Below are positions 2,407 to 41,962 of a stretch of DNA of 64,000 nt, one piece after another. Every line of letters begins with the position of its first letter. Position 1 is the stretch's first letter. The translations under genes were made by a program, and so were the position numbers. This stretch comes from an uncultured Actinomycetes bacterium (GTDB lineage: Bacteria; Actinomycetota; Actinomycetes; S36-B12): assembly GCA_963755335.1 (NCBI GenBank), contig CAVWJW010000008.1:1305684-1369683 (forward strand), in the 5' to 3' direction. Under the pieces are notes generated by a model. It did not search any database and was not told where the DNA came from. It worked only from the letters and a program-made list of their open reading frames with translations.

Positions 2407-4050
2407 CAGAACCGACCGATGAGGGGTGCCACGATCACCTTGACGATCATCGCGGCGGGGTACACGAGCGCATAGCCGAGGTTTACCCTCGCGTCGTCAT
2501 GCGTCTGCTCGTTCGAGTAGGCGAGCACGGCGGGCTGGGTCTGGCTGCCGGCGAGGATGCCGCCCATGCGCGGACCGTAGATGCCAGCCAGCAGTCGTCC
2601 GCCGATGAGGATGGTCGCGGCCGTGATGGTCGTGACGACGATGCCGACCGCGAACAGGCGCAGTCCGGTCGGACCGGCCAGCGCGTCCGCCAGGGCCGCA
2701 CCCGAATTCGATCCGGCGTAGGCGAGGAACAGGCTCATGCCGAGGGCGGTGAGGGTGGCCGCGACCGCGTGCGGGATCGTCCACAGGACCGGCCCGGTGC
2801 GCTGGAGGCGACCGACGATCAGGCCTACCACCAGGGGACCGCCTGCCATGCCGAGGGCGAAGTGGCCGCCGCCGGGCAGCGGGAACTGCAGCAGGCCGAT
2901 GAGGACGCCGAGTGCCAGGCCCAGGGCAAGGCTGGTGATCGAGTAGGCCGAGGCGCCCTTCTCGGAGTCGCCCAGGAAGTCCGCCACGTCGTCCATGCGC
3001 CGTCGCGGGGCGACGATCCGGACGCGGTCACCGACCTGCAGCACGAGGTCGTCGGTAGCCAGGAGATCGACGTCACCGCGACGAACGCGGGTGGCGACGG
3101 CGCCGAACTTGCGACGCAGGTGCAGGTCGCCCAGGTGCTGCCCGGCGATCTTCCGGTTCGATACGGCGATGCGGCGATAGTCGACGAGGGAACGGTCCAA
3201 GGTGAGCGCGACGCTCGACAGGATGCCCCACCTGGGCGGTGAACCGCTCCACGGCCTCCTGCTCGCCGATGACGGTGATGATGTCACCGGGCATGGGAAC
3301 GCCGTCATCGGTCGCGACGTCAACGATGCCTGGATGGCCGGGGGTGTCGCCGCGCATGATGCGGGAGAAGACGATGTGGTGGTCGTACTGGTCGGCCAGG
3401 ACTCCGAAGTCGGGCAGTCCGGCCGTCTCGACGCGGACGGTCGTTCCGTCCAGCTGGGGCGGCAGCGGGTCTTCGACGACGGGCGCGAGGGCCTTGTTCG
3501 GGGCCGACATCCGCAGCCCGATCGCGGCGGCGAGCAGCATGCCGAGCACGCCGAACAGGTACGTCACCGAGTAGCCGACGGTCGGGCAGGTCGGAGGCCC
3601 AGGCCTCGGTGGCGGCGGCCAGCGCGGGGGTGTTGGTCAGCGCGCCGGCGTAGATGCCCGACAGGATCGGGCCCTCGAGGCCGAGTGAGTGCGCTGCCGA
3701 GCACGGTCACGACGGCGCCCAGCAGGAGGCCGCCGATCACCACGCCCAGGGCGCGACCACCCGTCTTCATGGCGGCGAAGAACGACGGTCCGGCCCCGAC
3801 CCCGATGACGTACGCGAAGACGGCGAGGCCGAAGGTGCCCAGGATGACGCGGCAGCTTGAGGCGGTCGTCGTACGCCGAGAAGGCCAGCGCGGTGAACAG
3901 CACCGCGGCCGGGCCGAGGGAGAAGCTGCCGATCTTGATGGCCCCGATCGCCCCGCCGATCGCGAGGATGACCATCAACAGCAGCAGTGGCTGCTCGGCG
4001 GCGATATCGGCGTACTGCTGCAAGATCTGGCTCACGTCCACGGGATTCAT
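2406..4050 (-). CDS. YidE/YbjL/AspT-family (AAE) transporter with two internal TrkA-C (RCK_C) domains, several frame breaks
   Basis: N-terminus MNPVDVSQILQQYADIAAEQPLLLLMVILAIGGAIGAIKIGSFSLGPAAVLFTALAF (3637..4050 frame). RCK_C-like segments TTVRVETAGLPDFG...GDIITVIGEQEAVERF and GQHLGDLHLRRKFGAVATRVRRGD...LQVGDRVRIVAP. C-terminal membrane half in 2406..3323. Pieces lie in at least 4 frames. Confidence 0.7.
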
Positions 4051-4133
4051 TATTGCGGGTCGACGCCTGCAAACGCTTACGTCACCGGCGTGACGTCACT
4101 CACGCGGCCCTGCATCGCCCGCCCGCCCGCACG

Positions 4134-5836
4134 TCAGCCGGCGGTGCCGGCGTCGTGGCCCTCGAGGACCAGCCCGTAGGCGACGGCCCATCGATGGTCG
4201 AGGGTCCCCGCGACTCTCGCCCGCCCGACCGTGACGTCGCGCAGGGTCGGTGCCAGGGCCTCGAGCAGCTCGTCATCGCCGGCCGGCCCACCGGTCACGA
4301 CGACCTGGCTGGGCCGCGCAGACGGGTCCACAGCAGCGAGGAGCCGGGTGAGGTTGTCGGCGAACACCCACCGCTTCAGGGACAGGCGCAGCGATCGCCA
4401 TTCGGCCAGCGACAGGCTGCGCGAGAACGGCAGGTCGCCGCTCGGCCCCCGCACGACGAGCCAGCCGACGGTGCCATGCGGCGCGGCGGAGTCCAGGAAG
4501 CGTCGCTCGCCGGACTCGTCGGAGACCACGTGCGGAGCGTCCACGCGGCTTGCCGGGCCGCGCTTCACCCACTCCGCGGCGCCACCAGAGATGGCGAGGG
4601 CATGACGGGTTGCGGCGGTCATCAGCTCGCCGCTGCCGGCCGCTGTGGCGCTGCGGCCATGGGAGTCGATGAGGTCGACCGTGCCGCCCCCGAGGTCGAG
4701 CACCCACGCGTCCGCGCTCGCGCCGGGGGTCGTGAGCGAGCCGCGTCGGCTCGCGGTTCCCTCGTCGCTGATCACCTCGACGGCTCCGCTCCACTCGCGG
4801 GCGAACGCGTCCGTGCCCTCCGTGGACCAGCGGTCGGCTGCGAGGGACGACACGACGAGGGACTGCTCGCGCACCGTGCCGGCTCGAAGCCCCGGCAGAT
4901 CGCTGACGTCGGTGAGGTCCACCAGCCACAGGTCGTCGACCCGCTCGTGCGCGCCCCCAGGTGCGCGCAGCGACCGAACCGCCGGGAGGGTCAGCTGCAG
5001 GAGGATAGACCGGGCCGACGGCAGGTCGACCTCGCGGTCGTCCCGCAGCAGCACGCTGCCGCGGTCGGCGACGACCGCGCCCTCCGGCGCCGCCGACTGG
5101 CGAAGCCGCCCGATCACCGCGTCACGGTGCCCGCGGGTAACGGCCGCCGCAGACACGGCATGACGCTGCTCGTCGAGGGCCAGCTCCAGGGCGTGCACCA
5201 GCCAGAGCGGGTCGGCGAGCGTCGTGACGAGCTGCCCCGACCCGGCGACCTCCAGCGCGATGAGGTCGCAGGCGAGGGCCTGCGAGGGGTCGACGCAGTC
5301 GGCCACCGGCAGGGATCGCTCGAGGCGGGCAGCCACCAGGGCCGCCTCGTCCCCGGCCAGCAGCACGCCGGCGATGTCGCTGCGACGTGACTGCCAGGCG
5401 ACGATCGCGGCTGTCGTGGCCCGGAACCCCAGTGGATCCTCGGCGACGAGCACCAGCGGTCCGGCGCCGACCGTGGCGGGATCCGAATCGACCCGAACCG
5501 GGCGGCCGACGCCGCTGCCGGATCCTGCCGGGGTCGAGGCGCCGGTGGACAGGACCGTCAGACGACCTAGGTCGGCGGGGGCCTCAGGGACGTCGATCCG
5601 ACCGGTGTGCACGGGCCGCTGCGGGGTGACGAACACCGTCTCGATCTCGAGCGTTCCTCGTCTGGCCGCCCGCGCCAGCAGTGCGGCCGCCGCTCGCGCC
5701 GGACTCTGCCGAGCCCTTCCGGCCTCGAGTGGGAGCCCGTTCGGTCGACGACGACATGGGGAGGTGACGCCGAGACGTCGGCGACGACGACCTCGGTGGT
5801 CGAGTTCCCGATGTCGACACCGGCGACGAGCTTCAC
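4134..5836 (-). CDS. Diol/glycerol dehydratase reactivase, large (ATPase) subunit, 2 frame breaks
   Basis: N-terminus MKLVAGVDIGNSTTEVVVA matches the DdrA/PduG-type start (xIAGIDIGNSSTEV). The long C-terminal ORF 4134..5636 has LDLGGGTVDLID and VVVTGGPAGDDEL actin-fold ATPase motifs. GTG 5836 overlaps the upstream stop. Shifts near 5745 and 5700. Confidence 0.8.
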
Positions 5837-6189
5837 GCCAGCAGGCCGCGCGCCAGGTACGCCTGGGCTGCCTCCCGCACCAGTGCGGCGTTCAGCGGAG
5901 CGTCCCGCGCATCGAGGTCGCGCGCGATCTGCTCGAGCTGCGCGCCCGTGGACCGACGCGGGCGGAGTGCCTCGTAGATGGCCAGCACGAGGTCGTCAGG
6001 CAGGACGGACAGTTCCGCTGCGCGCCGGAAGTTCGCCGCCAGCTGCGGGTTGCCGTGGCTGGCCGCCACCTCTGCCTGGTGCTCGAGGGTCGACGGGTCG
6101 ATGCGGATGTCGTCCACGGCGACATCGCCACCGCGTACGGCGTCGAGCGTGATGTCGTCGACGGATCGACCGGACTTCGCGCGGGTCAC
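5833..6189 (-). CDS. B12-dependent diol/glycerol dehydratase small (gamma) subunit
   Basis: VTRAKSGRSVDDITLDAVRGGDVAVDDIRIDPSTLEHQAEVAASHGNPQLAANFRRAAELSVLPDDLVLAIYEALRPRRST aligns by eye with the PduE/PddC core (LDDLTLENV...MRITPETL...NFERAAEL...PDDRILEIYNALRPYRST). GTGA overlap with the beta stop at 6186. Confidence 0.8.
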   Translation of the reverse strand: MTRAKSGRSVDDITLDAVRGGDVAVDDIRIDPSTLEHQAEVAASHGNPQLAANFRRAAELSVLPDDLVLAIYEALRPRRSTGAQLEQIARDLDARDAPLNAALVREAAQAYLARGLLA

Positions 6190-8439
6190 GATCGCACCAC
6201 CTCCATCTCCTCCGGTCCCGCAGTCGGGTCGCACCACTGCCGTTCGATCGCCACCAGCGACACGACGGTCGTGTGGTACCGGGCCTCGATGGCCTCGTCG
6301 GAGTAGGGATTGCGCTCCGGCTCGGGCGTGGCCCCCTTCGCATGCCGACCTGCGTTGACACCGAGCTGGCGATAGGACTCCCGGCTCAGGCTCGGCGCGA
6401 CGGAGTACAGCTCGAGGTTCGCCAGCGGCGAGAGGTCGCGTCGGTGGATCAGGGCAGTGCCCTTGGCCTGCAGGCCGACGCCGATGCCGGAGCCCGAGAG
6501 GCGGGCGGCCGTCAGGCCGATGAGGCCGAGATCGATCGTGTCGTTGATGCGGACCACGCGGCCGACGCAGCCTTCCTCCTCTAGGCCGGCGAGCAGCTCG
6601 TCGAGTGCGTCGTCGACGGTGAGACCCGCTCAGGGTCTGCCAGATCGCCCGACCGGCCGCGGGGGAGACACCGATGACGACGTCACGGGGGTCGTCCCGG
6701 CGTTCGGCGGGACCGGTCGCCCTCAGGGTGCTGGAGGCGTGCTCCTGCTGCTGGGCGCGAAGGTCGTCGACGGATCGCTGCTGACGGATGGCGTCGATCT
6801 CCCGCTGCCGCTGCGGCGTCGGCTCGTAGCCGGTGCCGGGGCCGGAGTAGTCGTTCGGATCCGTGACGAGGGACAGGATGTCCATCTCCTCGTTGAAGAT
6901 CGCCGCAGTCTGGAGATAGTCGCCGTGCACGCGGGCGTGCAGCATCTGCAGCATCCGCTCGGCCTCGACCTCGTAGCCGGCCTCGTCGAGGGCCCGGATG
7001 ACGTCGATCATGGTGATGTTGGTGTCGCGGATCAGGCGGGACGCCGACAACGGAGTCATCAGATCGGCGTCAGGGACGTCCTTCGAGCCCGCCGCGTCGA
7101 CCGCCTGCGCCGCCCAGGCATCGGTGAAGTCGCCGAGACCGAGGATGCGGTACACGTCGCGTACCGCGGCGACGGCCCGTTCGCGCAGTGCGGCAACGTG
7201 CGGTTCGGCCGCTGTGCGCAGTCCGGCATCGACTCCCCAGTCGCGTTGCATGGCCAGGAAGTCGTCGATGTCCTCGGAGTTCCACTGGCTGGGCCCGAAC
7301 ATGTTGTCGTAGCGCTGGATGGAGCCGAAGCCGCTGCAGATGAAGTCGGAGCCGCCGATGAAGATCGGGTGCGTGCGTGACGTGCGCCGCACGTCGGACT
7401 CGCTCATCAGGGCGTCGTTGCCGGTGCAGGCCTCGAGGTTGCGCACCATCACCATGAGGTTCTCGGCCATCAGGCTGCGCACGCCACCGGGCACGGCGCC
7501 GGCGACAGACGCGGAGTCGATCCCGCCGTTCTGGACGCCCTGCGAGCCGATCGCCCGGGCGAGGGCGACGCAGCGGGACTCGAGGTAGAACATCGAGCAG
7601 CCTTCGGCGCTGCCCATCAGGGCCTCCGCGCCCCCGCCTGACGTCACGCGCATCTTGATGCCCCGGCTGGCATACGCCGAGGTCAGGAAGGCCTTCGACC
7701 ATGGGGTGTCGTCGCCGTCGATGAAGATCTGCTCGGTGCCGTACAGGGACACCGTCTCGGCGTACGACACGAGGCCGCGCATGCCCATCTCGAGCTCGAG
7801 GGCCTCCTCGACCGAGCACTGGACGAGGATCCCTGGCGAACCGACGGCCGCGCCGATGCTGACGGCGATGGCATTGGACGGAGCATCGCCGAGGACGGGA
7901 ACGGTCGTCTCGATCTCCCGGAAGCCGAAGGCGGCCGCGGTCGCGGCGTCCGCGGCCAGCAGCAGTGGGTCATCGGACCTGTTCGTCACATGGGCCTGGT
8001 TGCTCGGCGTGCGTCGGGCCCGGCACTTGGTCATCGCGAGGGTGAGCTCGGCCGGCCGCAGCAGGGTGAGGACGCAGGCGAGCTTGGCCGGCGTCATGCC
8101 GCTGGCCAGCCGCACGATCTCGGATCGTGGGACGCCCGGATCCACGATCATGCGGGCGAAGGCGAGGTCCGGGACGCCCATGGCCTCGTCGGCCACCGTG
8201 AGGTCGAGGCCGTGAGCGGCGATGAACGCGTCCAGGAGGTCGAAGTCCGCCGCCGCGCGCGAATCCATCTCCGTGACGCGGCCGTCGGTGATGACCAGCG
8301 AGGGTGCGGGATCCGCGGGGGAGGCGAACGCCATCAGTCCGAGTGCGGCGTCCTCGACGGCGAAGCCGTCGAGGTTCACGCGCTGCTCGTCCATGAAACG
8401 GAAGCGGCCGATCGGCCGCCGACCATCGCCCTCGCTCAT
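6186..8439 (-). CDS. B12-dependent diol/glycerol dehydratase, large (alpha) and medium (beta) subunits in one reading frame, 1 frame break
   Basis: Alpha part: FMDEQRVNLDGFAVED...VQCSVEEALELEMGMRG...SRGIKMRVTSGGG...FYLESRC...GNDALMSESD...QRDWGVDAGL. It runs without a stop into the beta motifs DVVIGVSPA...TLSG. After a shift near 6624 it continues ...RVVRINDTIDLGLIGLTAARLSGSGIGVGLQAKGTALIHRRDLSPLANLELYSVAP (6186..6557 frame). Confidence 0.8.
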
Positions 8440-8870
8440 GCGTCACGCTCCGTCTCGAAGGCAGCCCGTGCGGCCTCGGCGGCTGAACGGTCCTGGTTGG
8501 CCGAGCCACCGCTGACACCGACGCCGCCGACGACACGGTCACCGTCCCACAGCGGCAGCCCGCCGGCGAACGCGATGTAGCGGCCGGAATCGGCGGAGTT
8601 CATGCCGGCGAGCTCGGCACCGGGGGAGACCAGCGCCGTGAGCTCGTGCGTCGCGGACCTGTGCGCCACCGCCGTGAAGCCCTTGTCGCGGGCGAGGACC
8701 GGACCGGCGATCTCTGCTCCGTCCATGCGCTGGAACGCGATCAGGTGCCCGCCCCCGTCGACCACCGCCACGGAGACGAGGGCGCCGGCGGACGCGGCGC
8801 TGTTCAGTGCCGCCGCGCACATGCGTTGCGCCAGGGCCAGATCCATCTCGAAACGAGTCACCCGCGCCAT
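8436..8870 (-). CDS. DUF336 / GlcG / PduO-C-terminal-like (haem-degrading fold) protein
   Basis: 144 aa with VSVAVVDGGGHLIAFQRMDGA...ARDKGFTAVA...GGLPLWDGDRVVGGVGVSGG, typical of DUF336. ATGA overlap with the dehydratase start. Confidence 0.75.
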   Translation of the reverse strand: MARVTRFEMDLALAQRMCAAALNSAASAGALVSVAVVDGGGHLIAFQRMDGAEIAGPVLARDKGFTAVAHRSATHELTALVSPGAELAGMNSADSGRYIAFAGGLPLWDGDRVVGGVGVSGGSANQDRSAAEAARAAFETERDA

Positions 8871-9877
8871 GCTGCTGCGACCTTCCGCATCTGTTCATGC
8901 ATGCCGTTCATGGGTTGGACGGCTCCGAGCACGCTCTTCGGCACCTTGCACACGACTGTGTAGTTCGTGTCGACGACATTGGCGATCGGGGTGAGGGCCG
9001 CCTGCGACACGAGCTGGTAGGCGTCGATGATCGTCTGTCCGGTCAGCTCGGAGACCCACAGGACCATCTGCTGGTGCGCGATGCGGAAGGCGTCCTCGAG
9101 CGGGCGCGCCGATCCCGTCGTCATGACGAAGTCGTCGCTCTCGATGCGCGGCCAGGGAGTGGGGTGTCCGTGCACGATGTCGAGGACCACCGTGCTGTCC
9201 ATGGCGCACTCCACCGCCACGCCGCATGTCTCGCCCTCCCCCTGCCGGGCATGGCCGTCGCCCAGGCTGAACATCGCTCCGTCGACGTTGACACCCAGGT
9301 AGCAGGTGACCCCTACGCGCATCTCCGGCGTGTCCATGTTCCCGCCCCAGTCGCCGGGGGCCAGCGAGGAGCGCACTTCGCCGAGGGCGGGCGCCACACC
9401 GACGGTTCCGTGCATCGGATCGAGGGGGAGCGCGGCCGTGAAGGGAGTGTCCGCGGCCATGTAGCGGACCAGGGCCTCGGCCCGGTCGATCTCGTAGATC
9501 CAGGTGCGTTCCAGCAGTGCGCCGTGCAGCATCGCCGTCGTAGGTGTGGCCGTCAGCGACCCGAAGAACGGCACGGTGCTGCTGACACCCCACGCCTCGC
9601 GGGGCTCGATGGACACGAAGTGGACGGCGAGGGTGTCACCGGGTTGTGCGCCCTCGACGTAGAAGGGGCCGGACTGGGGGTTGAGCAGGCGCGGGTCGCA
9701 GACCTGGCTGGCGAGGTCGGACGTGCTGCGCACGCGGCCGCCGAAGCAGTCCATCGTCCACGTCGACAGGACCGTCCCGGGGCGGACGGACGCGACGGGG
9801 GGCACCCCGCCGAACGTGTAGGTGTAGGTGGTCGGATCAGCGTCGGCGTCGGGCTCCCAGCGAAGCTCCTCGGGCAC
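8858..9877 (-). CDS. Acetamidase/formamidase (FmdA_AmdA) family amidohydrolase
   Basis: LNPQSGPFYVEGAQPGDTLAVHFVSIEP...GDWGGNMDTPEM...GAMFSLGDGHARQGEGETCGVAVE are family hallmarks. Preferred start is GTG 9877, preceded by GAGGAGG. ORF 8858..9937 extends slightly further upstream. Confidence 0.8.
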   Translation of the reverse strand: MPEELRWEPDADADPTTYTYTFGGVPPVASVRPGTVLSTWTMDCFGGRVRSTSDLASQVCDPRLLNPQSGPFYVEGAQPGDTLAVHFVSIEPREAWGVSSTVPFFGSLTATPTTAMLHGALLERTWIYEIDRAEALVRYMAADTPFTAALPLDPMHGTVGVAPALGEVRSSLAPGDWGGNMDTPEMRVGVTCYLGVNVDGAMFSLGDGHARQGEGETCGVAVECAMDSTVVLDIVHGHPTPWPRIESDDFVMTTGSARPLEDAFRIAHQQMVLWVSELTGQTIIDAYQLVSQAALTPIANVVDTNYTVVCKVPKSVLGAVQPMNGMHEQMRKVAAAWRG

Positions 9878-9906
9878 GGTTCCTCCTCGCGAACGGTGGG
9901 GAAAGT

Positions 9907-9944: not shown

Positions 9945-9960
9945 CGAGTGTTTCAGCGGG

Positions 9961-11575
9961 TCAGCCCCGGCTGTGCGCTTCCTCGATCGTCGTCCGGCCG
10001 ATCTCGGCGTAGATCTCGGGGCGCTTCGCCTTCAGGTAGAGCGCGTACACGACGCCGATGAGGAACAGGCCGATGACGTAGTACGGCATCCACTGGAAGA
10101 CGAGGCTGTCGGCGGCCAGCCCGGCGGCGAAGCTGCGGTTGGACCACAGCAGGTAGAGGGCGTAGATCATGCCCGCGGCGCCGACGATCGGGGCGACGAG
10201 CGTCATGAGGAAGTTGCCCTTGTTCACCTTCTTGACCCAGAAGTACCAGATGACCGCGAAGGACGTGATCGTCTGGACGATGAGCACCATCGCCGTTCCG
10301 ATGAGCGCCAGGATGCCGTAGACGTTGACGTACGGAATCAGGTCAGGCGTGGCCTGCGGAACCCCGTTCGCGTCGGGCACGTACACGTTGGTGAACAGCA
10401 GGAACAGCACGCACAGCAGGAGCGTGATGCCGCTCTGCACGAACGACGCGATCGCCGGCGACCCGTGCTTGACGTTGACGTGGCCCAGGGTGTTGCGGAC
10501 CGAGGAGGCCACGCTCTCGCGTCCCATCGCGTAGAGGTACCGCGAGGCTGCGTTGTGGAAGGCCATCGCACAGGCGAACGAGCCGATCACGACGAGCAGC
10601 TTGTAGACGTTCTCGGCGAGGCCGCCGAGGTTCGCGTTGACGAGGTTGAGCCACAGGTCGACGGGCGAGGCTCCGGCGGAGACCTCGACCGAGGTCTTGG
10701 CGCCGTTGCCGACGACGACCATCCACGACATGAAGGTGTAGAACAGGCCGAGGCCGATGACTGCGATCATGGTGGCGAGGGGGACGTTGCGCTTCGGGTT
10801 CCTCGACTCCTCGCCGTAGACGGCGGTCGTCTCGTAGCCGACCCAGGACCAGAAGGCGAAGAAGATTCCGATGGCGGAGGCGCCTGCCGCGACGCTCGTG
10901 CCGAAGGCTCCTTCAGGCAGCGAGCTGAAGGCGGCTATCGGGTTCACCGTGTCGGCCGCCATGAAGCCGTCCGGACCGCCCTTGATCAGCACGGAGATGC
11001 CGAGGGAGGCGAGCAGCAGCACCTCGCACACCAGGGTCACGCTCAGCACGCTGGCCGCGAGGGAGATGGAGAAGTAGGTGAGGAGCGCGATCACGGCGAT
11101 GCCGAGGATGGCGATCCAGATCCAGTTGATGGTCAGGCCCATCGGGAGGAAGACGTACTGCGAGGCGAAGTAGGCGAACCCGCCGATCAGCGAGCCCTCG
11201 AAGATGATGTAGGCGACGGCGGCGAGCATGCCCGGAGGCCATGCCCCAGACCTGGCCGAGGCCCTGCGAGATGAAGCCGTAGAAGGCGCCGGCCGTGGTG
11301 ACGTAACGGGCCATGGCCACGAAGCCCAGCGTGAAGATCGTGAGGACGATCGTGGCGAACAGGAAGCCGCCCGAGACGGCGATGCCGTTGCCGTAGCCGA
11401 TCGCGATGGGGACGTTGAAGCTCATGGCGGTGATCGGCGCCGCGTTCGCGACCGCCATGAACAGGACGCCGACCAGACCGACTGCCCCGACCTTGAGGCG
11501 GGCAGCCTCCTTGGTGTTCAGCTGGTGATCACCGGGCAGCGCATGCGGCCCGTCCTCGAGGTTGCTCGTGCTCAT
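9961..11575 (-). CDS. APC-superfamily amino acid/amine permease, 1 frame break
   Basis: Twelve-helix-type hydrophobic profile. N-terminus MSTSNLEDGPHALPGD...GAVGLVGVLFMAVANAAPITAM (10913..11575 frame) continues in 9961..11229 (MLAAVAYIIFEGSLIGGF...). Extra G near 11231. RBS GGGAGGA lies before ATG 11575. Confidence 0.8.
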
Positions 11576-11624
11576 GAACCGTCCTCCCGTGGCCGACCCG
11601 CGTGATGCAGGTCACGATTCGCGG

Positions 11625-11653
11625 AGTATGGCGCCATCCTTGGACCGTTACAA
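11625..11653 (-). promoter_or_regulatory. Candidate sigma-A-type promoter of the permease/dehydratase operon
   Basis: On the minus strand: TTGTAA, 17 nt, CATACT, about 50 nt upstream of ATG 11575. Located in the only AT-enriched stretch of the locus. Confidence 0.3.
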
Positions 11654-11670
11654 GCATTTCCACGTATTCC

Positions 11671-11817
11671 GGTCTGGAATTATCCCGATGGAAACACCGA
11701 AACGGTCTGTTAACCGTCCGGCAACACGCCAGAGACCACACCGATACGTTGAACATCCGGATTCGTTCACGAGGGGGCGAGGACTTTAGTCCTCGTTTAC
11801 GGTATTGATTTGGTCTG
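11671..11817. promoter_or_regulatory. Three GGTCTG boxes (candidate GntR/HutC operator half-sites) in the divergent BMC control region
   Basis: GGTCTGGAATT (11671), ACGGTCTGTTAACCGT (11702-11717, arms ACGGT/ACCGT) and TTGGTCTGCCAA (11811-11822, arms TTGG/CCAA). The third box lies in the spacer of the plus-strand promoter. TGGTCT is the half-site I recall for the HutC-subfamily regulator DasR. Confidence 0.35.
11778..11795. promoter_or_regulatory. 18-bp near-perfect palindrome upstream of the BMC operon promoter
   Basis: CGAGGACT-TT-AGTCCTCG with 8-bp perfect arms, ending 10 bp upstream of the candidate -35. Confidence 0.35.
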
Positions 11818-11832
11818 CCAATTCGGTATGGT
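11805..11832 (+). promoter_or_regulatory. Candidate promoter of the BMC enzyme/shell operon; implies a leaderless mRNA
   Basis: TTGATT (11805-11810), 16 nt, TATGGT (11827-11832). The in-frame GTG at 11839 lies 7 nt after the -10, and GTG 11833 abuts it. No Shine-Dalgarno sequence is present. Confidence 0.3.
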
Positions 11833-13153
11833 GTGCGGGTGACCGACCAGGCCGAAGCGGCGCCGGAGTACGACTACGGGCTGTTCACGTTCTCCTCCAA
11901 GGCCGAGGTTCTCGACAAGGCGAAGGAGTACTGGAACCCGGGCAAGACCCAGTTCTGGATCGACTCCGGGGTGCCCCTGGTGATCGACCGGCGCGAGGGC
12001 TACTTCCTCTGGGACATGTCCGGCAAGCGGCTCATCGACCTGCATCTCAACGGCGGCACCTACAACATCGGCCATCGCAACCCTGAGGTCGTCCAGGCGC
12101 TCACCGTGGCGATGCAGCACTTCGACATCGGCAACCACCACTTCCCGGCGCTGGCCCGCACCGCGCTCGCCGAGGCGCTGATCGCGTCAGCACCGGCCGG
12201 CCTCTCGAAGGTGATGTACGGCAGCGGCGGCGGCGAGGCGATCGACATCGCCCTGAAGACGGCGCGCAACGCCACGCAGAAGCGCAAGATCGTCTCGATC
12301 ATCAAGGCCTATCACGGTCACACGGGCCTCGCCGTCGGCGCCGGCGACGAGCGGTTCTCCAAGTTCTTCCTCGCCGACCAGCCGGAGGACTTCCCGCAGG
12401 TTCCCTTCAACGACCTCGAGGCGATGGAGGACGCGCTGCGCGGGCGCGATGTCGCCGCCGTGATCATGGAGACGATCCCTGCGACGTTCGGCTTCCCGCT
12501 GCCTGAGCCCGGCTACCTGCGGGCCGTCAAGGCACTGTGCGAGCAGTACGACGCGCTGTACATCGCCGACGAGGTGCAGACCGGACTCATGCGCACGGGC
12601 GAGCTGTGGGGCATCACCAAGGAGGGCATCGAGCCCGACATCATGGTGACCGGCAAGGGCATCTCCGGCGGCATGTACCCGATCGCCTGCGTGCTGGCCA
12701 GTGACGCCGCCGCTGGGTGGCTCACCGAGGACGGCTTCGCGCACATGTCGACGTTCGGCGGGGCGGAGCTCGGCTGCATCGCGGCGATGAAGGCCCTGGA
12801 GATCTGCTCGCGCACCGAGACCCGCTCGATGGTCCACTACATCGCCGACCTGATCGGCTCGGGCCTGCGCTCGATCCAGGCCGACGTACCCCGACTGGTT
12901 CATCGGCATCCGCCAGAACGGCGTCATCTTCGGACTGGAGTTCAACGACCCGCAGGGCGCCAAGTACGTGATGCGGCGGCTGTACGAGAACGGCGTGTGG
13001 GCGATCTTCTCCACCCTCGACCCGCGGGTGCTGCAGTTCAAGCCGGGGATCCTGCTCAAGCCGGAGGTCGCCGAGGAGGTCCTCGACCGCGTGGAGGTCG
13101 CCATCGGCCTGGCCTACCGCGACGTGACGGGTGCCGGGGGTGGTCGTCGATGA
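11833..13153 (+). CDS. Class-III aminotransferase-fold PLP enzyme (putative 1-amino-2-propanol O-phosphate phospho-lyase), 1 frame break
   Basis: LWDMSGKRLIDLHLNGGTYNIGHRNPEV...GSGGGEAIDIALKTAR...YHGHTG...ADEVQTGLMRTGELWG...DIMVTGKGISGG (PLP-Lys context). The true C-terminus YPDWFIGIRQNGVIFGLEFNDPQGAKYVMRRLYENGVWAIFS...GGGRR is in the 12968..13153 frame (shift near 12886). The real start may be GTG 11839. Confidence 0.8.
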
Positions 13154-14710
13154 CCGCGCTGCTGGCGGACATACCACTGGAGCCGGCCGGCGTGCCGCGC
13201 GGTCGGGCCATGGTCGAACGCGCCGAGTGGGCCGCCCGGGCGTTCGCCTCCTACGACATCGAGACCGTGCGTCGCATCGCCAAGGCCGCGGCAGAGGCGG
13301 GCGAGAAGCATGCGCGGACGTTCGCCGAGGACGCGGTCGCCGAGACCGGCTTCGGCGTCGCGGAGCACAAGGTCCTCAAGAACGTGGCCTGCTCCATCGG
13401 CATCTGGAACACCTACGGCGGCAATGACTACGTGACACCCGTCGTCCACGACGACCAGCGGGTAGTCGAGATCCCGCGACCGGCGGGAGTCGTCTTCGCC
13501 CTCACGCCGTCGACCAACCCCGTGGCCACCACCTACTTCAAGATCATGCTCGCCCTCCTGACGCGCAACGCGATCATCATCAGCCCGCATCCCTATGCCA
13601 AGAAGGTCTGCGCCGCGGCAGCACGGGTCATGGGCGACGCCGCCATCGAGGCGGGCGCACCCGACGGGTGCATCCAGGTCGTCGAGGAGCCTTCCGTCCC
13701 GCTGATCGATGCGGTGATGTCGGATCCCCGCGTCGATGTCATCGTCGCGACGGGTGGGACCCCGATGGTCCGGGCGGCCTATCGAAGCGGCAACCCCGCG
13801 CTCGGCGTCGGTCCGGGCAACGTCCCCGTCCTGGTCGATGCCACGGCCGACCTGGCGATGGCGGCGCGTCACCTGGTCGCGAGCAAGGCGTTCGACAACT
13901 CGATCCTGTGCACCAACGAGTCCGTCGTGATCGTCGAGGAGAAGGTGGCCGCACCGTTCGCCGCCGCCCTTCGGCGTGAGGGCGCCTACGTCCTCGAGGG
14001 TGAGGAGATCGATGCCGTCCGGGGGGTGATCTTCGAGGGAGACCACTTCAACGTCGCTTGGGTCGGCCGCTCGGCCCGCCAGATCGCCGAGGCCGCCGAG
14101 GTCAAGGTCCCGGCGAACACGCGGATCCTCGTGGCGCCGTTCCCGATCGTGGTGCCGGAGGAGATGCTCGCCCACGAGAAGCTCTGCCCGGTTCTCGGCC
14201 TGGTGACGGTGCCGAGTGCATCGCGAGGGATCGACGCCGCCAGGGCCGTCCTGCGCATCACCGGCGCCGGGCACAGCGCGGCGATCCACAGTGCGGATCC
14301 GGGCACGGTCATGGCCTTCGCGGCCGCCGTACGGGTGCTTCGCGTGTCCGTGAACGTCGGCAACAGCCTGGGCGGCGCGGGCATCGAGACGAACCTGGCC
14401 CCGTCGATGACCATCGGCACCGGGTTCTTCGGCGGCTCGTCGCTGGGCGAGAATCTCGAGCCCAAGCACCTCGTCGACATGACCCGTATCGCGTACAACG
14501 CGGACACCCGTGTGCCCATGCCGAGCTTCGCCGACCTGACGCCCTGGGCGGCGCCCACGGGGGTCGTCCCGGCGTACCCGTTCGCGTCGAACCTGGCCGA
14601 CGCGCCGCGCCTGGTGCCCCCCACCCCGACCCGATGACGGGACCGGCGAGCTCCGCGAGGAGATCCGCCGACTCGTCGTCGAGGAACTACGACAGATCAT
14701 CAAGGGCTGA
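13150..14710 (+). CDS. CoA-acylating aldehyde dehydrogenase (EutE/PduP-like) with C-terminal encapsulation-peptide-like helix, 1 frame break
   Basis: ATG 13150 overlaps the upstream stop (ATGA). ALTPSTNPVAT...VATGGTPMV...GVGPGNVP...AFDNSILCTNES (catalytic Cys). After the C-run at 14617-14622 the frame shifts, and the gene continues PTPDDGTGELREEIRRLVVEELRQIIKG to the stop at 14708-14710. Confidence 0.8.
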
Positions 14711-14714
14711 CACC

Positions 14715-15317
14715 GTGGCTGAACTGCGCTCCTTCATCTTCCTGGACCGGCTCCAGCCGCAGACCATGTGCTACCTCGGCACCTGGGTCCGTGGCGCACT
14801 GCCGCGGGCGGACTACGCCGCCCAGATCATCGAGGTGGCGCCGGGGCTCGACATCGAGCCGCTCACCGACGTGGCGCTCAAGCATGCCCACGTGGGGGCC
14901 GGGATCCTCTTCGTCGAGCGGCAGTTCGGGTACCTCGAGATCCACGGCCCGACGAGTGCGGTGCGCAGTGCGGCGGACGCCGCCCTCGAGCAGCTGGGAG
15001 CCACCGCGCACAGCGCGATGCGCCCGCAGATCCTCGCCTCACGCATCGTGCCGAAGATCGACCGTCAGCACGCGTTCCTCATCAACCGGAACAAGATCGG
15101 GTCGATGGCGCTGCCGGGGGAGTCGATGTTCGTCCTCGAGATGCAGCCGGCCAGCTACGCCATCCTCGCCGCGAACGAGGCGGAGAAGGCCGCTCGCGTC
15201 AAGGTCGTCGACTACCGCATGGTCGGTGCCACTGGTCGCGTGTACCTGACCGGGACCGAGTCCGAGGTGCGGGCCGCGGCCGAGGCCGCCGAGGCCGCGC
15301 TCCAGGCGGTGGCGTGA
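14715..15317 (+). CDS. Two-domain BMC shell protein (BMC-T-like, EutL/PduB-type permuted fold), paralogue 1
   Basis: GTG 14715. About 200 aa with two similar halves (IIEVAPGLDIEPLTDVALKHA...[16 protein letters not shown] and [42 protein letters not shown]). The second half resembles the EutL C-terminal domain by eye. Sits between cargo and shell genes. Confidence 0.6.
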   Translation: MAELRSFIFLDRLQPQTMCYLGTWVRGALPRADYAAQIIEVAPGLDIEPLTDVALKHAHVGAGILFVERQFGYLEIHGPTSAVRSAADAALEQLGATAHSAMRPQILASRIVPKIDRQHAFLINRNKIGSMALPGESMFVLEMQPASYAILAANEAEKAARVKVVDYRMVGATGRVYLTGTESEVRAAAEAAEAALQAVA

Positions 15318-15662
15318 TGACGACTAGCGGTCCTGTCTCGAACGACCTGCTGCGGGAGGTGATCCGCGACGTCGTCCGCGAGGTCATCCGGGAGGTGGTG
15401 GCCGAGGAGATCGCCGCGGCGTCCCTCGCCCGCACGGTCAGCCCAGGAGCCCCCACGCCGGCGAGCGGCGGTCGCCTCGGGCAGCCCGGCAGGTTCCGTG
15501 TCAGGCGCGACCCGGCTCGAGCGCGGGGCGCTCACCGAGCGGCATGTCCGCGCCGCCGGTCCGTCCGCCACCATCACCATCACGCGGGCCGTCGTGGTCA
15601 CGCCGCTCGCCAAGGAGCGCGCCAAGGCCATGGGCGTCGAGATCATCCGGATCGAGGAGTAG
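15317..15662 (+). CDS. Small (~114 aa) BMC-locus protein with N-terminal encapsulation-peptide-like amphipathic helix, 1 frame break
   Basis: ATG 15317 (TGATG overlap). N-terminus MTTSGPVSNDLLREVIRDVVREVIREVVAEEIAAAS, then a P/G/A-rich linker. The C-terminus lies in another frame (shift about 15485-15500): ...LERGALTERHVRAAGPSATITITRAVVVTPLAKERAKAMGVEIIRIEE, stop at 15660-15662. Confidence 0.55.
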
Positions 15663-18722: not shown

Positions 18723-19540
18723 ATGGCCGATGCAGGGCTGGACGATCTCGGGGCCATCGGCCCCACCGGCGAGGAGGTGCGTCGGCGGATCGTCGGGATG
18801 GTCGAGCGCGGCACGCTTGCAGCCGGGCCAGAAGCTGGGTGCCGAGCGGGAGCTCGCCGTGAAGCTCGGGCGTCAGCCGGTCCACCCTTCGCCAGGCGCT
18901 CGCCTCCCTCGAGGAGGCCGGGATCGTCCGGCGTGTTCCGGGCCGCGGCGGCGGCACGTTCATCGCGTCCGCGAAGGTCGAGCGCGACCTGTCCCGCATC
19001 GTCGGGATCCCGATGCTCCTGCGCGACCAGGGCTTCACCGCCGGCTCCCGCGTCGTCAGCGTCAGCGTCACCACGGCCGGTCCCGATGCGGCCGAGGCGC
19101 TGGGCATCGCGGAGGCCGACTTCGTCGTGGACCTGGTGCGCATCCGGCTGGCCGACGGCGTCCCGATCTCGCTCGAGCACGCGGTGTTCCCGGCCGAGCT
19201 CGTACCGGGGCTTCCCGAGCGGGGTCTCGGCGGCTCGATCTACGAACTGTGCGACCGCGAGTACGGCCTTCGCCCGGACGAGGCGATCGAGCACATCGAG
19301 GTCGTCGCCGCATCACCCGACGAGGCGTCGATCCTGGCGATCGACGCCGGTGCGCCGCTGCTGTCCGTCACTCGCACCACCCGCACGGCCGAGGGGATCG
19401 CCTTCGAGTACTCGCACGACCTGTTCCGTGCCGACCGCACGCGCATCAGCGTCAAGGTGAAGGGCTCGCCGACCACCGAGAAGGCACGGCTGCGCGGTCG
19501 GGTCATGGAGCTCGTTCCGCCGCACGACATCGATCAGTAG
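18723..19540 (+). CDS. GntR/HutC-family transcriptional regulator (wHTH + UTRA domain), 2 frame breaks
   Basis: LQPGQKLGAERELAVKLG and EEAGIVRRVPGRGGGTFIA (GntR wHTH), followed by the UTRA-like region ...DLVRIRLADGVPISLEHAVFPAEL...LLSVTRTTRTAEGIAFEYSHDLFRADRTRI. Shifts near 18815 and 18880. Confidence 0.75.
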
Positions 19541-25200: not shown

Positions 25201-25863
25201 TCGACCACGTGCTGTCGAGTGGCCGCAACATCAACATCCTGGTGCTCGACACCGAGGTGTACTCCAACACCGGTGGCCAGGCGTCGAAGTCGACCCCGCG
25301 CGGCGCCACGGCGAAGTTCGCGTCGCAACGGCAAGGTCACGCGCAAGAAGGATCTCGGGCTGCTCGCCCAGGCCTACGGCGACGTGTACGTGGCCCAGAT
25401 CGCCCTCGGCGGAAACGAGACGCAGACGGTCCGGGCGATGCGTGAAGCGGCGGCCCACGAGGGGCCCAGCCTGATCATCGCCTACAGCACCTGCATCGCC
25501 CACGGCATCGACATGGCGACGTCGATGACGCACCAGAAGCAGGCGGTGGCCTCGGGCTACTGGCCGCTGTACCGCTACCACCCCAGTCCCGAGGCGGGCA
25601 CCCATCCGTTCAGCCTCGACTCCAAGAAGCCGACGGTGCGCCTGCACGAGTTCCAGGAGCAGGAGACCCGCTTCGCCGTCCTCGAGCGCTCGGATCCCGC
25701 GCGGGCCGAGCACCTGCAGGCGCTGGCCCAGGCCGACGTCGACGAGCGATGGCACTACTACGAGCAGCTGGCCGGCGTCGAGCGGAACATCCCGATCGAC
25801 GAGAACGAGAACGCCAGCCATCCGGATCACGAGGAGGAGCTTGCGGAGAGGGGCGAGACGTGA
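22227..25863 (+). CDS. nifJ: Pyruvate:ferredoxin/flavodoxin oxidoreductase, single-polypeptide type, 1 frame break
   Basis: DGNEAVALVAHRLSDVCAIYPITPSS...EMQSEGGAAGALHGAL..., two 4Fe-4S motifs (CIDCGKCAIVCP, CTGCGICVDVCP), and GCGETPY...GGDGWAYDIGFGGLDH (TPP domain). The C-terminus continues in the 25027..25863 frame after an extra base near 25326. The start could be GTG 22260. Confidence 0.85.

Positions 25864-36747: not shown

Positions 36748-39386
<2,639 letters not shown>

Positions 39387-40440: not shown

Positions 40441-41962
<1,522 letters not shown>

Follow-up and report, generated by a model that had tools for sequence, protein, structure and literature searches.

The window analysed here, a stretch of 64,000 nucleotides with a G+C content of 69.6%, very likely encodes a normal 519-aa aldehyde dehydrogenase (ALDH) of an RMM/AAUM locus, with a C-terminal helix that resembles an encapsulation peptide (EP). 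The apparent truncation of this enzyme is best explained by a single spurious base, A14629. The protein would consist of three parts: an acylating EutE/AdhE-like core (residues 1 to approximately 450), a disordered linker of approximately 50 aa and a conserved helix of 19-20 aa (ELREEIRRLVVEELRQIIKG). The apparent stop codon at 14635-37 would then be an error of the sequence record caused by A14629, and neither a mutation nor a recoding signal. The coordinates of the features discussed below are listed in Table 1.

As written, the ALDH reading frame begins at an ATG that overlaps the stop codon of the preceding phospho-lyase gene (ATGA) and its terminal residues are ...ADAPRLVPPTPTR. The initial annotation gave this end as ...LVPPTPTR, and the sequence does read ...RLVPPTPTR before the TGA. 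Past this TGA, the next frame encodes ...PDDGTGELREEIRRLVVEELRQIIKG, up to a stop at 14708-10. From 14540 onwards this frame (frame 2) is open, giving ...PPPRPDDGTGELREEIRRLVVEELRQIIKG before the TGA at 14708-10, in agreement with the tail and stop that had been proposed one frame over from the written end. Upstream of the helix, frame 2 lacks ATG, GTG and TTG codons and the ORF list has no entry for it, so the tail is not translatable on its own. For this reason, the helix was ruled out as an independent small ORF.

The position of the break was determined by comparison with related contigs. L001 and L002 (ENA contigs) and L086 (a JGI contig) are from independent metagenome assemblies and match the window over 5-6.7 kb at approximately 96% identity. 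Where the window has CCCCG-A-CCCGATG, all three have CCCCG-CCCGATG. This is a difference of one base: the flanks around A14629 are identical and the last 23 codons of the gene are 100% identical. In these alignments the extra A sits between G14628 and C14630, outside any homopolymer. When it is removed, the core and tail fall into one frame of 519 aa, and the junction becomes ...LVPPTPPDDGTGEL..., the same as in the closest orthologue (P0001). The tail is not encoded in frame with the ALDH as written, and A14629 accounts for this mismatch. A pattern scan of metagenomes found only an allele lacking the insertion.

The break had originally been placed in the C-run at 14617-14622. A run of six C is present at this position, but a break inside it was ruled out: the relatives keep the run region (CCCCCT or CCCCCC) and differ only by A14629, and a shift inside the run would yield PPPRPDDG rather than the PTPPDDGTG of the repaired protein. 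Similarly, the extended peptide that was first proposed had the correct tail, while its PTPDDGTG junction is one proline short of the PTPPDDGTG of P0001. The observation that the next gene begins 5 nt past the stop was accurate, as its GTG at 14715 lies 5 nt from the last base of the stop codon, with a spacer of 4 nt. This gene encodes a BMC-T shell protein and is colinear with the L003 gene at 11571-12173, which is annotated with CsoS1D_N and BMC domains.

Table 1. Features of the ALDH region and sites of frame breaks in the window
Feature	Coordinates	Strand	Remarks
Phospho-lyase-like class-III aminotransferase	11833..13153	+	Extra C at 12885, frame 1 to frame 2; 439 aa when repaired
ALDH ORF as written	13150..14637	+	495 aa, frame 1; ATG at 13150, premature TGA at 14635-37
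Predicted linker coding region	14494..14644	+	Residues ~449-498, ~50 aa, P/T/A/G-rich; contains the extra base
Extra base A, very probably spurious	14629	+	Absent from L001, L002, L086 and L003
Predicted EP-like helix GELREEIRRLVVEELRQIIKG	14645..14707	+	Repaired residues 499-519; frame 2 of the window
Probable true ALDH stop codon, TGA	14708..14710	+	
BMC-T shell protein (double-permuted, CsoS1D_N-type)	14715..15317	+	200 aa, intact; Pfam BMC
Small conserved gene between the first BMC-Tdp and BMC-P	15317..15662	+	Extra G at 15457; 114 aa when repaired
Frame-break sites (~20)	1870, 2216, 3223, 3583, 3698, 3850, 6627, 11231, 12885, 14629, 15457		
Frame-break sites, continued	18815, 18871, 25326, ~29473, ~35717, ~37123, ~38081, ~40769, ~56191, ~56637		

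Orthologues of the ALDH carry the tail as part of the protein. At least 120 were found among the matches listed. All of these 120 are 480-536 aa long; their alignments cover 89% or more of the repaired 518-aa query and, for 117 of them, 98% or more. P0001, the closest of those listed (98% identity, 519 aa), has the C-terminus ...LVPPTPPDDGTGELREEIRRLVVEELRQIIKG and reads ...RLVPPTPPDDGTGELREEIRRLVVEELRQIIKG around the junction; the C-terminus of the repaired window protein is identical. The tail is in frame in each of the 14 orthologues whose sequence was inspected. An alignment of ALDH orthologues had been suggested as a check on the extended reading, and in it the C-terminal helix is conserved in frame and is not missing from the orthologues. 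Judging from these sequences, the tail belongs to the ALDH.

Within the tail, five residues (R502, I505, R506, E512 and L513) do not vary among 38 orthologues, and three more (L501, E504 and E511) are nearly invariant. The motif can be written as xLR[ED]E[IL]RRL[IV][IV]EEL..[IL][IVM][KR]. It is conserved in approximately 70 genome loci and terminal in most of the 80 considered, which are spread over many actinobacterial lineages and the Proteobacteria. For example, the tail of the Mycolicibacterium ALDH is ALRAELRALVVEELAQLIKR and that of a proteobacterial ALDH is IRAEIRRIILEELKELTAR. Distant homologues from Brevibacillus and Anaerolineae (approximately 42% identity) have other amphipathic helices at the same position, and the linker ahead of the motif varies widely in both length and sequence among the approximately 70 loci. 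Codon comparisons point in the same direction. The tail codons of L013 differ from those of the window by 8 synonymous and 4 non-synonymous changes and those of L064 by 10 and 6, respectively; this number of synonymous differences over conserved residues indicates that the tail frame is under purifying selection.

The domain structure of the protein was defined from profile and structure alignments. The Pfam Aldedh match covers residues 20-405, and alignments to PDB and NCBIfam profiles stop at residues 449-461, which places the end of the core at approximately residue 450. Beyond residues 449-461, no alignment was obtained with the solved homologues or with the TIGR02518 and PRK13805 models. 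AlphaFold2, run with an alignment of 38 sequences, predicted a core extending to approximately residue 448 and a helix (residues 499-517, pLDDT approximately 65) preceded by a stretch with pLDDT below 50 (residues 468-497). An AlphaFold model had been recommended at the outset, and this one predicts the helix behind a disordered linker. The hydrophobic moment of the helix is 0.51 at 100 degrees and 0.66 at 90 degrees. Because 8% of shuffled sequences reach 0.51, amphipathicity alone is not convincing: the i/i+3/i+4 hydrophobic pattern described in the initial annotation can be seen, but it is only moderately above chance, and conservation is the stronger evidence. Specifically, helix positions L2, I6, L9, V10, L14, I17 and I18 stay hydrophobic in the orthologues.

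We used the definition of an EP given by Aussignargues et al. 2015 (PMC4594438), and the ALDH tail agrees with it in three respects. First, the helix is terminal in an enzyme of a BMC locus, as it forms the last 20 residues once A14629 is removed. Second, it is a predicted alpha-helix of 15-20 residues. Third, it is separated from the catalytic domain by a flexible, poorly conserved linker. The predicted architecture of the conserved tail, a linker followed by a terminal helix, fits that of a C-terminal BMC encapsulation peptide; this is the type of feature that had been suspected from the sequence, and both conservation and the AlphaFold2 model are in agreement with it.

A peptide at this end of the protein is also to be expected from the class of the enzyme. 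The best NCBIfam matches of the ALDH are to the AdhE N-terminal domain (PRK13805) and TIGR02518, with the latter scoring 372 bits compared to 264 bits for PRK15398 (EutE/PduP type). Among PDB entries, 3my7, 3k9d and 5j78 have E-values of approximately 1e-108 to 1e-117, while those of PduP structures are approximately 1e-62; the structure matches include the AdhE N-terminal domains 3my7 and 6ahc and the EutE-like 3k9d. Based on these scores, the ALDH can be assigned to the EutE/AdhE-like type I AldDh, closer to TIGR02518 (which we take to correspond to IPR013357) than to the PduP type. Which terminus of a BMC aldehyde dehydrogenase carries the EP varies with its subfamily (Aussignargues et al. 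2015, PMC4594438): in type I AldDh (IPR013357, EutE-like) the EP is at the C-terminus, while in type II it is at the N-terminus (Sutter et al. 2021, PMC8217296). As the enzyme matches type I, a C-terminal EP is its expected state.

The ALDH tail does not differ in kind from the EPs of type I AldDh enzymes (PMC4594438, PMC8217296). Like them, it is located at the C-terminus of a pfam00171 AldDh, forms a helix of approximately 19 aa with a hydrophobic face and is preceded by a poorly conserved, disordered linker. What distinguishes it is that the motif of the RMM lineage, LREEIRRLVVEEL..II, is conserved within that lineage. The tail is therefore a known kind of feature and is nothing new. On this point, the text and supplements of Sutter et al. 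2021 do not go beyond the general rule for types I and II and descriptions of RMM loci, and in the literature consulted we found the RMM ALDH EP nowhere named explicitly and no experiment on the tail. The tail may also be compared with the N-terminal EPs of PduP and PduD, which likewise consist of a short amphipathic helix and a linker and target cargo to shells. PduP is a type II AldDh and PduD is the medium subunit of a diol dehydratase. In hydrophobic moment, the ALDH tail is close to the PduD peptide. Unlike these EPs, the ALDH tail is at the opposite terminus and in a different ALDH clade.

By analogy with the EPs of type I BMC aldehyde dehydrogenases, the helix would target the ALDH to the shell, docking it to the shell or to the cargo core during assembly. 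The lineage motif LREEIRRLVVEEL..II would be a candidate tag by which cargo could be loaded into RMM shells, an extension of known biology. It is conceivable but unlikely that the C-terminal helix, while real, serves instead in oligomerisation of the ALDH or in binding another cargo protein. The tail motif is more conserved in sequence than is usual for EPs across BMC types, its amphipathicity is only moderate and the neighbouring small protein (15317-15662) has a similar helix that makes it a possible partner. Against this, the terminal position, length, disordered and variable linker and BMC-locus context are those of the published EP definition (PMC4594438), and the different amphipathic helices at the same position in type I ALDHs of 42% identity are what would be expected of EPs. 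Furthermore, EPs have also been proposed to drive cargo aggregation, such that targeting and cargo-binding roles are compatible.

The surroundings of the gene are those of an RMM/AAUM locus. Positions 3100-26126 of the window are colinear with the L003 locus (81% identity), which gives the gene order permease, class-III aminotransferase-like phospho-lyase, ALDH, BMC-Tdp, small ORF, BMC-P, BMC-H, BMC-Tdp, APH kinase, SDR and GntR. The L003 gene table contains the enzyme set together with one BMC-H, one BMC-P and two BMC-Tdp genes, and the Pfam hits for three window genes are consistent with the RMM/AAUM gene set. In the RMM/AAUM locus of M. smegmatis, msmeg_0276 encodes the ALDH and msmeg_0277 the aminotransferase (Axen 2014, PMC4207490; Sutter 2021, Supplementary Data 2). 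The window shares the gene set and order of this Mycolicibacterium smegmatis locus as well as the homologous ALDH tail (ALRAELRALVVEELAQLIKR), but it comes from an uncultured actinobacterial lineage and its ALDH is only approximately 60% identical. Upstream of the RMM genes, on the minus strand at approximately 4100-9900, colinearity with L003 identifies genes for the large, medium and small subunits of a diol dehydratase and for its reactivase, as well as for HbpS-like and FmdA/AmdA-like proteins. RMM genes accompanied by diol dehydratase genes on the opposite strand form the layout named RMM2/PDU2 (Axen 2014, PMC4207490).

In the written sequence, a 934-aa ORF extends from 11833 to 14637. 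This ORF results from the extra C at 12885, as the out-of-frame phospho-lyase sequence stays open by chance into the ALDH frame. The phospho-lyase, the kinase and the SDR had been described as having no comparable terminal helix, and a quick check of their intact L003 orthologues led to the same result. A second EP-like helix in the locus had been passed over: the product of the small gene at 15317-15662 starts with the amphipathic helix DLLREVIRDVVREVIREVVAEE, and in the L003 orthologue this N-terminal helix has a hydrophobic moment of 0.71. The helix is followed by a P/S/A-rich linker and a conserved C-terminal domain of approximately 45 aa (GAVTER...VLTPLARDRARALGVEI). The gene was found in 54 of 86 related loci (RMM-type), and the 114-aa protein has no significant match in Pfam, NCBIfam or the PDB. 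Its role may be that of an adaptor or scaffold, serving cargo proteins that do not have an EP of their own.

A14629 is one of many extra bases in the window. Relative to L001, L002 and L086, extra bases are present at 9958, 11231 (in the permease gene), 11577, 12885 (phospho-lyase), 14629 and 15457 (small gene), and no uncompensated deletion was seen. Relative to L003, the window has additional uncompensated +1 insertions at 3223, 3583, 3698 and 3850 (transporter), 6627 (diol dehydratase), 18815 and 18871 (GntR) and 25326 (PFOR), while uncompensated deletions occur in intergenic DNA only. For a frame scan, the whole window was also segmented with a hidden Markov model of three-periodic GC content, and the frame switches were then examined for stop codons. 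On the same strand, 20 switches have no stop codon in their vicinity, and 18 of these are of the +1 insertion type. The two others are a switch at 18817, which corresponds to a pair of +1 insertions close by (18815 and 18871), and an ambiguous one at 37969, which has very short segments on either side. Where a relative exists, the predicted switches are no more than approximately 55 nt from an aligned insertion and in most cases within 6 nt of it. All of the approximately 20 breaks are consistent with the insertion of a single base and none with a deletion; both coding and non-coding DNA are affected, at a density of about one insertion per 2-3 kb.

Several of the broken genes are located outside of the RMM locus. 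The PFOR junction at 25327 falls inside the TPP_enzyme_C domain of this protein. Two breaks are located in the C-terminal part of a GyrA/ParC-like gene, one lies near 40769 in the gene for the principal sigma factor, and a CysE-like gene is also among those affected. When a MetY-like gene is stitched together from its five frame pieces, it produces a continuous match to Cys_Met_Meta_PP (positions 1-380 of 381). This gene (36900-38200, plus strand) contains about four breaks in 1.2 kb, the densest cluster of the window. An organism with all of these genes broken would not be viable. The breaks in housekeeping genes and the restriction to insertions together imply approximately one spurious base per 2-3 kb, with A14629 among them. 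Based on this pattern, A14629 and the other insertions are very probably sequence artefacts. They resemble the indel errors of genome and metagenome assemblies, in which scattered single-base indels break essential genes and are absent from the assemblies of relatives. They differ from the usual errors of this kind in that there are insertions only and in that about half of those mapped against close relatives, including A14629, lie outside homopolymers. Non-homopolymer insertions are atypical of the commonest long-read consensus errors, and their share here counts against a technical origin.

If the insertion were instead a genuine mutation, the strain would make a 495-aa ALDH with no targeting helix in a decaying RMM locus or genome. 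The written sequence does have the appearance of a dead operon, with truncation of the ALDH, phospho-lyase, permease, small EP-bearing gene and GntR regulator, and the position of A14629 outside a homopolymer is in keeping with a mutation. We nevertheless consider this explanation quite improbable for three reasons. First, breaks of the same type are found in the MetY-like gene (approximately four times) and in the PFOR, GyrA/ParC-like, principal sigma factor and CysE-like genes. Second, the breaks mapped against relatives are all +1 with no deletion, while natural decay gives both. Third, apart from the indels, the genes have no stop codons or signs of decay, and the DNA of the ALDH tail is 100% identical to that of intact relatives. 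Pseudogenisation specific to the RMM locus was ruled out, as the same type of break affects housekeeping genes in other parts of the window.

Programmed +1 ribosomal frameshifting, for which prfB is a known case, could in principle produce a regulated mixture of EP-tagged and untagged ALDH at CGA-UGA-C, where the frame-1 UGA followed by C is a weak termination context and the shift needed is indeed +1. We regard this as almost certainly not the case and rejected it, as the comparative data contradict it and the features expected of such a site are not found: the shift site is present in no relative, all of which encode the ALDH tail in frame; a P-site CGA, as read from the sequence, cannot re-pair on GAU in the +1 frame; the product would read PTPTRDGTG and not the conserved PTPPDDGTG; and no context similar to CGA-UGA-C surrounds the approximately 20 further breaks of this type. 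That the extra A is real at all, representing either a natural loss of the EP or a +1 shift at CGA-UGA-C that sets the ratio of targeted to free enzyme, is very improbable. Should it be real in either way, it would constitute a natural experiment, with EP dosage controlling cargo loading.

With A14629 taken as a spurious base, the result bears mainly on annotation. A literal reading of the window leads to an RMM locus with a truncated and untargeted ALDH, a 934-aa fusion ORF and many pseudogenes, all of which would be products of single-base insertion artefacts. Because the insertion errors appear to be systematic, any findings derived from ORF ends or pseudogenes in this window are suspect. 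In the long-read 'MFD' MAG loci L067, L074 and L075, the ALDH genes are also frame-broken or have lost the tail frame. This suggests that indel artefacts in this high-GC ALDH gene are common in public MAGs.
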